Below, piece by piece: positions 48,299 to 53,838 of a stretch of 53,838 nt of DNA. The position numbers and the translations under genes were made by a program. Below the pieces are notes generated by a model. That model did no database searches. It saw only the letters and a program-made list of their open reading frames with translations, and had not been told where the DNA came from. Position 1 is the stretch's first letter; the number at the start of each line of letters is the position of its first letter. Source of the DNA: a virus (Duplodnaviria > Caudoviricetes); IMG/VR virus record IMGVR_UViG_3300025425_000025, positions 1 through 53,838 of that record, one strand, 5' to 3'.

Positions 48299-50230
48299 TT
48301 AGTATCCCATTGTTGGGTCTGATGGACGGTAGGTTTGTCCAAAATCCATTCCACCAAAGTCAAAAGGTGAGATTGCTCTAGGTCGAGTCATTATACCATA
48401 CCTTAAAGCATCATACGTATGATCGCTTAAATACCTATCGTCAATATCTTCTTTTCCATCAGGATGAGAAGGCAACATAGGAAGGTCAGTAATTAGTTGT
48501 CTGCATGTATTGAATATCTTTATTCCGGGCTCATTAATTATTTCGTTGTAGTCATTAGTTCCTACGTCTCTCACACGTAATAGTTCATGAAGTCGATTCT
48601 TTCCATTAGTCCTAGAACCAGCACCACGATCAGAAGGACGCCATCTACAACCTCTAGCAATCATTTCTTCAGCAATAGAAGGTCCAGTTTGACCTCTTTG
48701 ATGCCATACAGAACTATCCATAACTCCATACTGCATGTGTTCACCAGCTTCTAGCTCAAGAATCATATCAGCTAGTTGAGCGCCAGTCTTTCTAGTAACA
48801 TACAACTCTCTATATAATATCAGAGTTTCATACACCGGGTCAATAGCAAACCACAAAACAGCAGCATTACTTGAATAACCATAGTCACAACTTCTAAATC
48901 GTTTCCATGATGATGGAATAGTGAAAGGCTCTATAACATGTACAGATTGTTTAAATTCACTAAATGCCGCACCTTCAACCATATTCCAGTCACCTTCAAG
49001 AAGTTGTCTTCTCTGAGCTTCAGGTAGGGATAGTAGCGAGGCTTCATATCTTCCATCAGCATATAGATATGGATTATCACTTAGCTTAGCAGGTATGAAA
49101 CGTCTTTGAAATAGTGGCGCATTAGGATGAATAGGATGATCAGGAGGATATCTTAGTATATTACCAGTATCAGTATCAGTCGCATAAAATGCTTCTCCCC
49201 AAGGAGCAGGATCAATAAACATTTTCTTAATCCATGTGCCCCCAACACCACCGGGGTTAGCTGTAGCTCTTTGACTAAGAGGAATGTTTGAATCAGTAGA
49301 ACGTAGTCTAGAACGCATATAGTTCCAAGTGTAGGGGCTTGCCCAATGTCCTAGTTCATCAAATCCAATCCAAGTAAAAGCCTGTCCCTGATATCTCTCA
49401 ACGTCTTCATCACGATCAAGATACGTCATCCATAGTTGTGCGCCACTAGGGAATACCCATGATGACGTTTGTTCTTTCCACTTTGCACCGGGAAAGGCTC
49501 TAGGATATATTAGACGAGACTTTTGTTTTAGTTCTCTAAGTTCGTCATTTGTCTTTCTGAATAGGATAGCATTACAACTAGGACTATTGAAATATCTCAT
49601 AGGGTCAGCTAACATAGCGTAGGATTTACCTCCACCAGCAGCGCCACCATATAGTACTTCTTGTTCAGGTGCAGCTAGGAAATCAGTTTGAGGACCACTA
49701 TTAGGTTTGAATACTACATCAAGATCACTATCATCTTTAGGTTCAGCAGGGATAGAATACTCAGATGCTTTAACTTGATCATCAGCAGTAGTAATAGCCT
49801 CTTCAAGATTCTTAGTACGAATGGATAAAGAACGCTTAGCACCAGATACCTTATCTTTAAGCTTCTTTAACTGTTGTTCTTCTTTCGTTCTTGAAACACG
49901 TCTATTCTTACTTTTTTCTTTTAGTAAGGCTGCCCGTTCATTACCGGCAATACCTTTTCTATGCTTCTCCCAAATCACTTTGATACCCTGGTGAGATATA
50001 GGCTTACCACCAATTGCAGGAGAGCGATCAGAATACCAATCAGCTACAGATCGAAAGGAATTACCCTGATCTACAAAATCCATAGCCTCTTCTAGAAGTT
50101 CAATTACTCTAAGATCAGGGACGAATACTTTTGTATTTTTATCGTCTTTTGTATAACCATGCGGCGTTCTAGCTGTTAGGTTTATTCGTGGAATATTATC
50201 CCATGTGTCTTTTGGAGTAAATTTAGGCAA
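48299..50230 (-). CDS. terL: terminase large subunit with N-terminal HTH/coiled-coil extension
   Basis: LYGGAAGGGKS, WIGFDE, ATANPGG, DNPYL, LLEGDW, DYG, DHTYDALRY; TTG start with AAGGA RBS. Confidence 0.92.
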   Translation of the reverse strand: MPKFTPKDTWDNIPRINLTARTPHGYTKDDKNTKVFVPDLRVIELLEEAMDFVDQGNSFRSVADWYSDRSPAIGGKPISHQGIKVIWEKHRKGIAGNERAALLKEKSKNRRVSRTKEEQQLKKLKDKVSGAKRSLSIRTKNLEEAITTADDQVKASEYSIPAEPKDDSDLDVVFKPNSGPQTDFLAAPEQEVLYGGAAGGGKSYAMLADPMRYFNSPSCNAILFRKTNDELRELKQKSRLIYPRAFPGAKWKEQTSSWVFPSGAQLWMTYLDRDEDVERYQGQAFTWIGFDELGHWASPYTWNYMRSRLRSTDSNIPLSQRATANPGGVGGTWIKKMFIDPAPWGEAFYATDTDTGNILRYPPDHPIHPNAPLFQRRFIPAKLSDNPYLYADGRYEASLLSLPEAQRRQLLEGDWNMVEGAAFSEFKQSVHVIEPFTIPSSWKRFRSCDYGYSSNAAVLWFAIDPVYETLILYRELYVTRKTGAQLADMILELEAGEHMQYGVMDSSVWHQRGQTGPSIAEEMIARGCRWRPSDRGAGSRTNGKNRLHELLRVRDVGTNDYNEIINEPGIKIFNTCRQLITDLPMLPSHPDGKEDIDDRYLSDHTYDALRYGIMTRPRAISPFDFGGMDFGQTYRPSDPTMGY

Positions 50231-50357: not shown

Positions 50358-50684
50358 TATAGATTCTCTAGAAACGTCCTAAATAAAGGCTTATTGTCCT
50401 TCATAAGAGTTGTTAATCCAGGTTGATAATCTAGATACAACTTCTTCTTCTGTATCCTTTTCCTTAATTCTAAATAGCGCGTATAATGCATGTAACATTT
50501 CATGGATAATAGTATCTACATTATCTGACTCATGATGATGACGTACCCATTCTATCTTATTTAGTATTTCATAATGGTTTCCATATGACTCCATATCAAT
50601 AATGGCTGAAGGTTCTGTTCGTTCTACAAGATCATATGTCTTATGAAGTATTTTAATGTGTTTTGGGTATGTTACTTTAGTCAA
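50358..50684 (-). pseudogene. HExxH phage protein with 1-nt frameshift near 3' end
   Basis: IIHEMLHA; after VVSRLST the expected GLTTLMKDNKPLFRTFLENL* is in a shifted frame. Confidence 0.55.
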
Positions 50685-50701
50685 TAAATTATAACTCCAT
50701 T

Positions 50702-50777
50702 TGGTGCTAAGAGTAGGATTCGAACCTACAGCGCGTAATGCTTCAAACTACCGTTCTACCATTGGAACTATCTTAGC
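50702..50777 (-). tRNA. tRNA-Phe(GAA)
   Basis: Cloverleaf, loop TTGAAGC, TTCGAAT T-loop, encoded CCA. Confidence 0.9.
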
Positions 50778-50787
50778 TAATATTCTT

Positions 50788-50841
50788 TTAACCATGACGA
50801 CCAGCAAGATTAGAACCAAATACTAATATATGAGTAATCAT
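50788..50841 (-). pseudogene. 17-aa remnant MITHILVFGSNLAGRHG*
   Basis: VFGSNLAGRHG is the N-terminal motif of a widespread phage protein family; truncated by TAA. Confidence 0.55.
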
Positions 50842-51005
50842 TATGTGACCCTTATATCCTTACTACGAATATACTCATCTTCATTTAGATGTATTACAAC
50901 CATAGTTGAAGCTATAGCTGCTGATAGGCTATCTGCATTTACTTTAATATACCTATCGAATTTATGTGTGCTATATAAATAGATTGGAATTGTATATGTA
51001 TTCAT
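50841..51005 (-). CDS. small hypothetical protein (54 aa) between tRNAs
   Basis: Read manually; TAATG-coupled to remnant. Confidence 0.45.
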   Translation of the reverse strand: MNTYTIPIYLYSTHKFDRYIKVNADSLSAAIASTMVVIHLNEDEYIRSKDIRVT

Positions 51006-51022
51006 ATAGTCTATCTTTCATT

Positions 51023-51098
51023 TGGAGCCGGAACAAGGAATCGAACCCTGATCAACTGATTACAAAACAGTGGTAATAGGCCATTATACTACACCGGC
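51023..51098 (-). tRNA. tRNA-Thr(TGT)
   Basis: GCCGG acceptor, loop TTTGTAA, CCA. Confidence 0.85.
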
Positions 51099-51103
51099 AA
51101 AAT

Positions 51104-51175
51104 TGGATCGGGGAGTAGGGGTCGAACCTACGCTTAGAGGGTCAAGGCCTCTTTGTCTACCATTAACACCCCCGA
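51104..51175 (-). tRNA. tRNA-Gln(TTG), atypical (short D-arm, C33)
   Basis: Stem AGAGG/CCTCT, loop CCTTGAC, CCA; 72 nt. Confidence 0.65.
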
Positions 51176-51394
51176 TTAAGTCTCTGATACTATCCTATTA
51201 ATTATATATACAAAACCAAGTATGACAGTAGAAAAGAATAGAAGAAATCCTAAGTTAGCGAATACATATATACCAAATGTCATTGATGTACTAAAGAAAA
51301 CAAAACTGAATATTCCTGATATTATTGTCAATGATGTTATATTCTTAGAAAGCCATGTTCCAAAATCTGGAAGATCAGGTAACTTACTATTCAT
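51176..51394 (-). CDS. small membrane protein
   Basis: AGGAG RBS; two hydrophobic segments. Confidence 0.6.
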   Translation of the reverse strand: MNSKLPDLPDFGTWLSKNITSLTIISGIFSFVFFSTSMTFGIYVFANLGFLLFFSTVILGFVYIINRIVSET

Positions 51395-51409
51395 TTCTAC
51401 TCCTATATT

Positions 51410-51485
51410 TGGTAGTCACACTACGATTCGAACGTAGATCGAGGTTCTTATGAGGAACCGGCATTAGCCATTATGCTATGTGACT
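51410..51485 (-). tRNA. tRNA-Met or Ile2 (CAT), elongator type
   Basis: Loop CTCATAA, paired 1-72, no GGG/CCC initiator stem, CCA. Confidence 0.85.
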
Positions 51486-51734
51486 TTCTTTTAATAAAGA
51501 ATATGATTTCTAATATGCATTCCGTATCTATGCAATGAATTGTATATGTCCTTGGCATCTTTTTCAGAATCGAATACTAGTCTAGTAATATCATAGTCAA
51601 TAATAGGTATACCTTCTATCTCACCAGCATTATCCCAATATCCATCTAAATTATCATTAGATAAAGCCTACACCACCTCTAGACACTACAGTATCTTTTT
51701 CTCTTAATTCATCTATTTACTTCCATTCATAATT

Positions 51735-51809
51735 TGGTTGATCCTGAGAATTTCGAAATCTCGACTTTCAGTATGTAACACTGACACTCTGCCTCTGAGT
51801 TAAGGATCA
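51735..51809 (-). tRNA. tRNA-Val(TAC)
   Basis: Stem TCAGT/ACTGA, loop GTTACAT, CCA. Confidence 0.85.
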
Positions 51810-51810
51810 A

Positions 51811-51887
51811 TGGTGGAATCGGTGAGAATCGAACTCACTACAGTATGCTTGCAAAGCACTCTCGCTACCCTTAGTACATGCGACCCC
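51811..51887 (-). tRNA. tRNA-Ala(TGC)
   Basis: G3-U70 pair, loop TTTGCAA, CCA. Confidence 0.85.
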
Positions 51888-51894
51888 ATTTGTT

Positions 51895-51983
51895 TGGCGG
51901 TTAGGGTAGGATTCGAACCCACGGAACATTACGTTCGTCTGCTTTCAAAACAGGTGCCTTAAGCCAGACTCGGCCACCTAACC
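51895..51983 (-). tRNA. tRNA-Ser(TGA)
   Basis: Long variable arm, G73, loop TTTGAAA, CCA. Confidence 0.88.
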
Positions 51984-51997
51984 ATTATTATCTTACT

Positions 51998-52072
51998 TGG
52001 CATAGGGTGTAGGATTCGAACCCACATCATACGGGATTGGAAGCCGGTATTTTGCCATTAAACTAACCCTAC
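51998..52072 (-). tRNA. tRNA-Trp(CCA)
   Basis: Loop TTCCAAT, G73, weak anticodon stem, CCA. Confidence 0.75.
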
Positions 52073-52079
52073 AGATTAT

Positions 52080-52161
52080 TGGAGTCTAGCGTAGATTATC
52101 GCATCTACATTCAGATGGGGGAACGTTTCTTTTCCCTTCTAGTACCTATACCAAACTAGAC
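52080..52161 (-). ncRNA. tRNA-like element with acceptor stem and CCA but no canonical anticodon or T loop
   Basis: GTCTAGT/GCTAGAC-T-CCA; GTAGAT/ATCTAC stem; GGGAA/TTCCC stem. Confidence 0.55.
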
Positions 52162-52268
52162 ATATATGGTAGTTGTGATACGTCTACGGTCCATCCTAGG
52201 CCTACATACATATTTAGAGTATTTTCTAAATCATAAGCATTTGAGTGATGTATTACCATATACTTCAT
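52146..52268 (-). CDS. small hypothetical protein (40 aa)
   Basis: TAAGGT RBS; MKYMVIHHSNAYDLENTLNMYVGLGW... Confidence 0.45.
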   Translation of the reverse strand: MKYMVIHHSNAYDLENTLNMYVGLGWTVDVSQLPYMSSLV

Positions 52269-52288
52269 AGTTAATATTACCTTATGTA

Positions 52289-52362
52289 TGGCGGATCATA
52301 CGGGACTCGAACCCGTTTCACAGACTAGACAGGTGAGTGTAATACCTATATACTAATGATCC
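52289..52362 (-). tRNA. tRNA-Asp(GTC)
   Basis: GGA acceptor start, G73, loop CTGTCTA, mismatched anticodon stem, CCA. Confidence 0.78.
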
Positions 52363-52593
52363 AGTAGTACCTTTCGTCTCTTTAATTATTCAAATGATTA
52401 TTCTAATTAATTTTCTTCATAGCCATAGGAATTCCACCTTCAACTTTACTACGTTCAATTCTATCGTAGTTCGTACCCCAAGTCAATGATGAATTCAAAG
52501 CCTGTTCGTCTTTTGAAGGCAAATCCCATTCATTAAATTTACCTTTATACAAATCATAAGCCTTAATGGTCTGCATGATATCTACTTTCTAAT

Positions 52594-52678
52594 TGGTGTT
52601 CCTGATAGGACTCGAACCTACAAAGCTACGGCTTCTAAGACCGCATAGTATACCAATTCCTAACTAAGCCACAGGAAC
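52594..52678 (-). tRNA. tRNA-Leu(TAG), non-canonical fold
   Basis: Loop CTTAGAA, A73, Leu-type D-loop, 9-nt acceptor-D linker, short variable region. Confidence 0.8.
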
Positions 52679-52685
52679 GTTAATT

Positions 52686-52770
52686 TGGTGTCTAACCGGG
52701 GACTCGAACCCCGAAAGCTACCGGGCTTAAACCGGCATAGTGTGCCCATTCCTAATTAAGCCAGTTAGAC
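52686..52770 (-). tRNA. tRNA-Leu(TAA), non-canonical fold
   Basis: Loop TTTAAGC, A73, same 9-nt linker and short variable region. Confidence 0.8.
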
Positions 52771-52816
52771 GATTGTTTGTTTATACATCAAAAGTAATAA
52801 TTACTTCTCTTTTGTT

Positions 52817-52894
52817 TGGCTGACTCTGTAGGCATCGAACCTACCTAAATACTGCTTAACAGGCAGTCGCGTACACCTTGTTCGCCTAGAGCCA
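52817..52894 (-). tRNA. tRNA-Asn(GTT)
   Basis: Stem ACTGC/GCAGT, loop CTGTTAA, G73, CCA. Confidence 0.87.
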
Positions 52895-53098
52895 TTATAG
52901 TTCTTTCCATTCCACTTCTGAATATACCACTTTAGCATCCACACCGTGTTTTTTAAGATTAGTTACAATACTTTTTGGTCCAGTAAGAGAAATGTATATT
53001 TTTTCTTTTCCATCACTACGTTGTTCATACCATCGTCTAGATACAGAACCTTTTCTAATTTCACCGTTTATAACAACTGTGTATACTTTAGCAAGCAT
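52895..53098 (-). CDS. small hypothetical protein between tRNAs
   Basis: AAGGTG RBS; ends SEVEWKEL like neighbour 53195 ORF (SEVEWEVV). Confidence 0.55.
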   Translation of the reverse strand: MLAKVYTVVINGEIRKGSVSRRWYEQRSDGKEKIYISLTGPKSIVTNLKKHGVDAKVVYSEVEWKEL

Positions 53099-53113
53099 TA
53101 TGCACCTTAAATT

Positions 53114-53188
53114 TGGAGTGCCGGGTGGGATTCGAACCCACGTCTTATGGTTTAAAAGACCAACGCTAAACCTCTCAGCTACCGGCGC
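53114..53188 (-). tRNA. tRNA-Lys(TTT)
   Basis: Loop CTTTTAA, canonical T arm, CCA. Confidence 0.87.
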
Positions 53189-53194
53189 ATTAAT

Positions 53195-53371
53195 TTAGAC
53201 TACTTCCCATTCTACTTCAGATTGAACGGTTTCATATTCTTCATTAGAAATATGATTTTGAGCATTTCTAGCCGCTCTTGCATCATTCAATCTATAATAA
53301 AAAGGATTAGAAGTGTTATATTTAGTAACTAATCTTTTAGTTTCTTTATTTCTAACTGCATATACTAACAT
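53195..53371 (-). CDS. small hypothetical protein between tRNAs
   Basis: MLVYAVRNKETK...; track start overlaps a tRNA so was shortened. Confidence 0.55.
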   Translation of the reverse strand: MLVYAVRNKETKRLVTKYNTSNPFYYRLNDARAARNAQNHISNEEYETVQSEVEWEVV

Positions 53372-53387
53372 AGTGTATACCCAAATT

Positions 53388-53464
53388 TGGAAGACCAACC
53401 GAGATTCGAACTCGGACAACACGACTTAAGAGGACGTTGCTCTACCATTTGAAGCTATTGGTCT
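53388..53464 (-). tRNA. tRNA-Lys(CTT)
   Basis: Loop CTCTTAA, canonical D/T arms, CCA. Confidence 0.85.
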
Positions 53465-53777
53465 ATTGTGTATTACGTATCTTACGATTATCAAAAATCT
53501 CTTTTAGCTTATTAAGCTTTTGTTCATCGGTATCAAGAACCCATTTATCTTGACCATCATATGCGTCTCTCTTAGACGGATCAAATACTGCCCAGATATC
53601 ATAGAACGTATTATTGTATGCTCTGATAGCACTTTCCATAGAGTTACCATGCTGTTGTACTCTTTCAATAGTAGCCTTAAGACCACTAAAATCACTAGTC
53701 TCAACCATTGTTCTCATGGAATCTAACTCATCACATAGAACCTTATTCAATTCCAGAACTAGAGTAACTTTAGCCAT
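53463..53777 (-). CDS. hypothetical protein
   Basis: AGGA RBS; 104 aa. Confidence 0.6.
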   Translation of the reverse strand: MAKVTLVLELNKVLCDELDSMRTMVETSDFSGLKATIERVQQHGNSMESAIRAYNNTFYDIWAVFDPSKRDAYDGQDKWVLDTDEQKLNKLKEIFDNRKIRNTQ

Positions 53778-53838
53778 TAAACAAATTCCTGCTTGTAAGA
53801 TACAATAGTACCGCGTACAGTGTTATTAACAGTCTTGG

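Follow-up and report, generated by a model that had tools for sequence, protein, structure and literature searches.

Putative five-helix leucine tRNAs encoded in phage genomes

[quoted passage not shown] The sequence-only reading of the DNA analysed here had held that leucyl-tRNA synthetase (LeuRS) reads A73 plus tertiary shape, which agrees with that portion. In the work of Fan et al. (2019, PMC6614811), type I tRNA-Leu from S. coelicolor was not charged by the LeuRS of E. coli. Thus, at least some LeuRS enzymes are sensitive to losing the arm. Catalogues of odd tRNAs hold molecules with altered stem lengths or lost arms, and no added helix. Here we describe two phage genes, tRNA-Leu(UAG) and tRNA-Leu(UAA), in which the linker between the acceptor and D stems could pair with the variable region. 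Both genes are real and probably functional, and a structural variant of tRNA. We put at about 0.72 the probability that they are functional phage leucine tRNAs of a conserved five-helix architecture, serving the codons CUA/CUN and UUA/UUG.

The window (the whole stretch of DNA that was analysed) is a 53.8-kb virus record, estimated to be 96% complete. It encodes a DNA polymerase, a portal, a major head protein and a large terminase, the last about 55% identical to its counterparts in podoviruses of the HMO-2011 type, which infect aquatic alphaproteobacteria (for example, Roseobacter phage CRP-3). The two leucine genes lie in a tRNA cluster beside the terminase gene:

50702..53464, minus strand: tRNA gene cluster with both Leu genes, made up of 12 ARAGORN calls and the missed Leu(UAG)
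48299-50230, minus strand: terminase gene, with the tRNA cluster directly upstream

The record ends within this cluster, and an identical twin contig (L018) continues past position 53838 with six further tRNA genes (L018 2218-3497: Met, Pro, two Arg, Glu and Lys). Seven small open reading frames of 54-104 amino acids are interspersed among the tRNA genes (window 50391-53777, minus strand); none matched a Pfam family above the cut-off, and one had a weak match to DUF2232 under it. Another tRNA of the cluster (51998-52072, minus strand) has an irregular anticodon arm. ARAGORN assigns it no isotype and reads four bases, 'tcca', as its anticodon; Rfam scores it at 52 bits with the 7-nt loop UUCCAAU, so that its anticodon would be CCA (Trp), with two non-standard stem pairs. 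Positions 52450-52950 showed zero differing letters among the contigs of four DNA runs, which thus offer no population variation at the locus. No listed RNA run contains the locus.

Both leucine genes are read from the minus strand, where the tRNA text of the sequence-only reading matches the DNA letter for letter. From 5' to 3', each has an acceptor strand of 7 nt, U, GGCU, UARU, a D arm (3-nt stem strands around an 11-nt loop), U and an anticodon arm (5-7-5). These are followed by AGCU, UU, a T arm (5-7-5), the second acceptor strand of 7 nt, A and CCA. The linker between acceptor and D stems is 9 nt in both genes, compared with the usual 2, and the variable region is the 6-nt AGCUUU; a long arm (a hairpin of at least 10 nt) is absent. 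We call the pairing of GGCU with AGCU helix X, and tRNAs of this five-helix layout type A. The parts are as follows:

52770..52686, minus strand: tRNA-Leu(UAA), 85 nt, five-helix type A; anticodon 52729-52727, A73 at 52689, encoded CCA 52688-52686
52759..52762, minus strand: Leu(UAA) helix X 5' strand GGCU, directly 3' of U8 (52763); its alignment columns 9-12 covary with 54-57
52755..52758, minus strand: Leu(UAA) 4-nt connector UAAU from helix X to the D stem, A/U-rich family-wide
52738..52754, minus strand: Leu(UAA) D arm, a 3-bp stem UAG/CUA and an 11-nt leucine-type loop GAAU.GG.A.A
52716..52719, minus strand: Leu(UAA) helix X 3' strand AGCU, which abuts the anticodon stem and is followed by the invariant UU (52715-52714)
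52678..52594, minus strand: tRNA-Leu(UAG), 85 nt, five-helix type A; anticodon 52637-52635, A73 at 52597, CCA 52596-52594
52667..52670, minus strand: Leu(UAG) helix X 5' strand GGCU, after U8 (52671)
52663..52666, minus strand: Leu(UAG) 4-nt connector UAGU (from sequence partition)
52646..52662, minus strand: Leu(UAG) D arm, UAG / GAAUUGGUAUA / CUA (from sequence partition)
52624..52627, minus strand: Leu(UAG) helix X 3' strand AGCU, then UU (52623-52622)

All four standard stems are perfect in Leu(UAA) and Leu(UAG), including 7-bp acceptor stems followed by an unpaired A and CCA. Each gene also has a tRNA-type anticodon arm (5 bp, 7-nt loop, U33), a T arm (5 bp, UUCGAGU-type loop) and GG in the D loop. 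Helix X consists of G.U, G-C, C-G and U-A in both. The two genes are identical at 57 of 85 positions and differ in the acceptor, anticodon and T stems and at a few loop positions. It had been claimed that these stem differences are compensatory and that the linker and AGCUUU are kept, and this is borne out: the linker varies at R alone and AGCUUU is identical.

ARAGORN missed Leu(UAG) and mis-framed Leu(UAA) as a 76-nt gene (52686-52761). We rejected the 76-nt frame, which has an acceptor mismatch and wobble pairs, compared with the perfect stem of the 85-nt frame, which covaries in relatives. The Rfam model RF00005 matched Leu(UAG) with 34.5 bits in a local search (gathering score 29; E = 7e-6), skipping the D region as a 24-nt local insert, and gave zero matches to Leu(UAA), even at E up to 10. 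We ran ARAGORN on 45 type A genes, each with flanks of 40 nt: 1 was called exactly, 13 were mis-framed and 31 were missed. The type A gene is also unannotated in all three cultured-phage records that carry it. With 44 of 45 genes missed or mis-framed by ARAGORN and the gene left unannotated in GenBank records, phage tRNA complements are incomplete, as are the codon-based inferences drawn from them.

Relatives of the two genes were collected with pattern scans followed by covariance-model searches. A first pattern (linker plus D arm) matched 16 stretches; the true relatives lay in three viral contigs and 13 were chance matches. One pattern-matched contig (L097) gave no tRNA match. Helix X letters were left free in some pattern scans and fixed in others. 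[quoted passage not shown] The covariance model, R1, was built from four sequences with the four standard helices only, and helix X is thus absent from it. Leu(UAA) scores 105.3 bits with R1 by construction. Searches with this model after the pattern scans turned up independent members in contigs of other phages, scoring 60-100 bits. The R1 searches yielded 65 distinct sequences, of which we kept the 42 that measured 83 nt or more in total, with 25 nt or more separating the acceptor stem from the anticodon stem. The 23 dropped rows were type B (short leucine tRNAs described below), class II and His-like tRNAs, the 80-nt L129 and the truncated L164.

The 42 distinct sequences (83-86 nt) represent 68 type A matches in 55 sources, and their anticodons are exclusively those of leucine: UAG in 26, UAA in 9, CAG in 4, CAA in 2 and AAG in 1. 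All 42 share U8, U33, A35 and A73, the D-loop A and GG with two further A, the UU preceding the T stem and the T-arm G/TTC/A/C; an encoded CCA is frequent in the family. Among prokaryote genomes (one per species, 185,579 species), 12 pattern matches were found, of which 2 were real and 10 lacked a type A gene. The two real matches sit in dense tRNA arrays on MAG contigs, with 27 genes in 3.2 kb (L160 937-4078) and 20 genes in 3.5 kb (L163 1393-4865). This context is phage-like. Three ARAGORN calls in the L163 array have 2- or 4-base anticodons, and a 351-kb 'gammaproteobacterial' contig among the L163/L160 MAG contigs may be, or carry, a large phage.

A blastn search with a 251-nt region against 50,697 phage records gave no match at E 1e-5. 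Looser BLAST searches with single tRNAs found type A genes in three cultured phages:

Rhizobium phage RHph_I1_18 (host Rhizobium phaseoli), MN988519.1 9260-9342: type A gene flanked by tRNA-Pro and tRNA-Tyr, in a gap that carries no annotation
Synechococcus phage BUCT-ZZ01 (host Synechococcus elongatus PCC 7942), ON615601.1 122321-122403: record without a tRNA feature at the type A gene
Pseudomonas phage PHB09 (L187), 1201-1283: unannotated five-helix tRNA-Leu, with a hypothetical-protein coding sequence over it

The coding sequence in the last of these, PHB09_028 (L187 1214-1348, 'hypothetical protein'), overlaps both the five-helix tRNA-Leu and a tRNA-Cys (1291-1366), and is probably a false gene call. 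We also looked among relatives of the window's terminase, keeping 80 of 314 loci, many of them short, which may not reach the tRNA cluster; type A genes were found in only L018, the window's twin, and L019. The latter, a sister phage with 65% terminase identity, has kept a Leu(UAG) gene of type A whose stem changes are compensatory.

We aligned the 42 sequences by MAFFT, and the alignment is thus not fitted to any structure, helix X included. Helix X corresponds to columns 9-12 with 54-57. The family layout has a 7-9-nt connector, whose opening 3-4 nt downstream of U8 pair with the 3-4 nt immediately past the anticodon stem. Both window genes have this connector pairing, the U-run before the T stem and the leucine anticodon that define the five-helix class. 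Under the five-helix structure, 94.5% of cells pair, compared with 62.2% in shuffles, and helix X has a covariation score of 0.454, compared with 0.172 ± 0.028 in shuffles; neither observed value was reached in 500 shuffles, although kinship among the sequences means that these controls overstate significance. Pairing reaches 97.6% of cells in the acceptor stem, 98.1% in the anticodon stem, 99.5% in the T stem and 89.3% in helix X. When the partners of helix X were slid by 1-3 columns, covariation was 0.02-0.13. We also compared the longest complementary run between linker and variable region (own 3.68, permuted 3.23; 1 of 5000 permutations as high). The U-rich variable region gives this measure a high background, and the register-fixed counts were used in its place.

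Three of the four helix X pairs change on both sides. Pair 9-57 is GU in 40 sequences and GC in 2; pair 10-56 is GC in 29, AU in 9, CG in 3 and other in 1; pair 11-55 is CG in 31, GC in 5, AU in 1 and other in 5; and pair 12-54 is UA in 22, AU in 3, CG in 2, UG in 2, GC in 1 and other in 12. The variants include GGGA/UCCU, GACC/GGUU, GGAC/GUCC, GGCG/CGCU and GCC/GGU. Cells that do not pair come from a subgroup with a non-standard, purine-purine fourth pair (12 of 42) and from four 83-nt members, which fit only a 3-bp helix X in a shifted register. We aligned this 83-nt subclass separately, with the cultured-phage genes included (L143, L138, L121, L133, L183, L186 and L187). A 3-bp helix X pairs in all seven, as GGU/ACC, GGC/GCC or GAC/GUU, and two of its three pairs thus change on both sides. 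The first D-stem position of the subclass is an invariant U opposite U (7 of 7; alignment A6, columns 15 and 31), which leaves two standard D-stem pairs only.

As far as aligned sequences can tell, helix X is supported by evolution, its pairing kept via compensatory mutation across phages. The extra GGCU/AGCU helix predicted in the sequence-only reading is thereby upheld by its covariation and by the compensatory changes in the 42 relatives and the 83-nt subclass. The same changes support the further suggestion that an alternative tRNA topology is kept by selection. Decaying pseudogenes or chance resemblance would account for the low Rfam and ARAGORN scores, yet this explanation has next to no probability: the four standard stems are perfect in both genes, compensatory change is abundant among relatives in which 94.5% of cells pair, contigs from several runs are identical over the locus, and both the five-helix pairing and the helix X covariation contradict it.

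Predicted energies do not favour or oppose the helix. The nearest-neighbour energy change from helix X is -0.1 kcal/mol in both window genes, and over the 42 sequences its mean is +1.2 kcal/mol (negative in 24). Given these neutral energies, the case for helix X is one of covariation, not thermodynamics. Minimum free energy (MFE) folds are not cloverleaves, and in both window genes the linker sequence GGCUUAR pairs with the anticodon loop. These two genes and L010 alone have a linker that could form 6-7 bp with the gene's own anticodon loop and 3' stem strand:

52663-52670 with 52628-52638, and 52755-52762 with 52720-52729: linker/anticodon-loop complementarity, which dominates the Leu(UAA) MFE fold

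This pairing and the zero predicted gain in stability are what one might expect if the genes were real leucine tRNAs in which helix X forms only in a precursor or alternative conformer, with a role in processing, folding or anticodon sequestration. We consider this unlikely. Complementarity between linker and anticodon loop is not a feature of the family, as the longest run averages 3.81 with a sequence's own loop and 3.88 with permuted loops (1599 of 2000 permutations at least as high), and the near-invariant outer G.U and invariant U8 and UU flanks of helix X resemble a fixed tertiary core. We also examined the linker as an anticodon mimic or sequestering partner. The linker R agrees with position 36 of the anticodon in both window genes. 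In L014, the anticodon is CAA and the linker reads UUAA. On the permutation test and this counterexample, we rejected such a role as a family feature.

The preferred reading, that these are working leucine tRNAs, is consistent with what the genes retain. Both genes have A73 and A35, a D loop of leucine type and bases that could form A15-U48 (inferred numbering), and these are invariant in the 42 sequences. The genes keep the whole of the universal tRNA core and every member of the bacterial leucine identity set, the leucine positions being assigned by our own numbering. The phage's codon usage is also in keeping with the sequence-only reading, which had the tRNAs serving abundant CUA and UUA codons. 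Among 1019 leucine codons counted in 48 open reading frames, CTA ranks first (36.8%) and TTA third (22.4%), together 59% of the phage's leucine codons. Leu(UAG) would decode CUA and probably other CUN codons, and its pair-mate Leu(UAA) would cover UUA/UUG, so that the pair may supply the phage's most-used leucine codons.

No LeuRS domain was found in the phage record (96% complete, with the tRNA cluster cut at the window's end). Charging of type A would fall to the host LeuRS; in bacteria, this enzyme recognises A73 and the D/T elbow, not the long arm. Type A and ordinary class II tRNA-Leu occur together in L014 and L160, where one host LeuRS presumably charges both.

An alternative is that these are tRNA-like RNAs outside translation, acting as decoys for host enzymes that target tRNAs or in another regulatory capacity. 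Such a function would suit an architecture seen only in phage or phage-like DNA and scored poorly by standard models. It would leave unexplained, however, a fully canonical anticodon arm with invariant U33 and A35, anticodons that are leucine only in 42 of 42 sequences and fit the phage's commonest leucine codons, and the retention of A73, acceptor stems and an often encoded CCA. We therefore rate it as quite improbable.

If the molecules are leucine tRNAs with five helices, their geometry can be sketched from the spacing of the parts. Helix X would run directly on from the anticodon stem's 3' strand, without a spacer, and would be separated by 1 nt (U8) from the acceptor stem, by 2 nt (UU) from the T stem and by 3-4 A/U-rich nt from the D stem. 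With these spacers, helix X would lie side by side with the 3-bp D stem, and may span the distance of that stem, from the level of 26/44 to that of 8-14/15-48. There, a short duplex might replace the single-strand base triples 9/45/46, or the base of the class II long arm.

The sequence-only reading had also described the linker as replacing the long variable arm. The arm is indeed absent and the linker present, but 'replacing' is too strong, because phages also encode short leucine tRNAs that have neither the arm nor the long connector. These type B tRNAs carry leucine anticodons and A73, are 76-79 nt long, and combine a D loop of leucine type with a 2-nt connector and a variable region of 5-7 nt. 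Helix X is thus not the sole way to dispense with the arm. Type B is common in phages (L019 5214-5289 and 5389-5464, L103 9825-9901, L184 290-366), cultured enterobacterial phages included, the last being the annotated tRNA-Leu of Salmonella phage PVP-SE1. Three further tRNAs (L112 2635-2712, L127 6872-6949 and L141 3538-3615) have a GUG (His) anticodon, yet share the GAAUUGG-type D loop and 6-nt U-rich variable region of the short leucine tRNAs; in L112 and L127 the discriminator is C.

When the 7 nt after U8 are deleted on paper from a window gene, a 78-nt molecule of type B layout remains, as would be expected if the extra 7 nt were an insertion removed after transcription to leave a type B tRNA-Leu. 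The segment covaries with the variable region, however, which shows that it is read as part of the folded RNA, and we hold its excision to be very unlikely. We know of no bacterial or phage mechanism for excising a 7-nt piece at this tRNA position.

Why phages would keep a five-helix leucine tRNA is a matter for tentative proposals. In principle, an arm-less leucine tRNA could escape tRNA-targeting toxins of the MenT/AbiEii nucleotidyltransferase kind. The five-helix shape might then be a form of counter-defence, in which the long arm is dropped, the core is braced by helix X and charging by the host LeuRS is retained; we regard this as conceivable, though rather doubtful. If it were so, CUA- and UUA-rich phage genes would still be translated when the host tRNA-Leu is disabled.

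More generally, if the connectors 8-9 and 44-48 pair and an ordinary LeuRS charges the product, a widespread elongator tRNA would represent a new solution to the L-shape. It would offer a natural test of which core features are needed by LeuRS, EF-Tu and the ribosome, and the five-helix shape may serve as a scaffold for engineered tRNAs. As cultured phages carry type A genes, their structure, charging and function are testable.

The sequence-only reading knew of no structural description of such a fold, and our literature searches also found none. Full-text searches, with supplements and older subscription papers on phage tRNAs outside their scope, found no helix joining the variable region to the 8-9 connector. 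The same helix is absent from the available portions of PMC6614811, PMC7609411, PMC5389517, PMC9976931, PMC11541572 and PMC2265525. Natural departures from the 7/5 form include the 8/4 and 9/3 allo-tRNAs, tRNA-Sec, tRNA-Pyl and the armless mitochondrial tRNAs, some of them in phage tRNA clusters (available parts of PMC5389517 and PMC7609411). As described in those parts (Mukai et al. 2017; Krahn et al. 2020), these alter stem lengths or lose arms; in none is a helix added that links the variable region with the connector at 8-9.

Other leucine tRNAs are also among the closest counterparts. Class II tRNA-Leu (for example, L166:7605-7691, L132:5787-5875 and L014:10942-11026) shares with the window genes A73, leucine anticodons with A35, a standard T arm, a 3-bp D stem with an 11-nt GAAUUGG-type loop, and a similar length (85-89 nt). 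The window genes differ in that they lack the variable hairpin, have a connector of 9 nt rather than 2, and have a connector that pairs with the variable region. Type I tRNA-Leu, comprising the S. coelicolor tRNA-Leu(CAA) (available part of PMC6614811), the animal mitochondrial tRNAs and phage type B, is arm-less like the window genes, and for both a bacterial-type LeuRS presumably does the charging. Phage type B further has in common with them the D loop and a U-rich variable region of 5-7 nt. Type I and type B have an ordinary 2-nt connector and four helices, whereas the window genes carry 7 extra nucleotides after U8, which would form the fifth helix.
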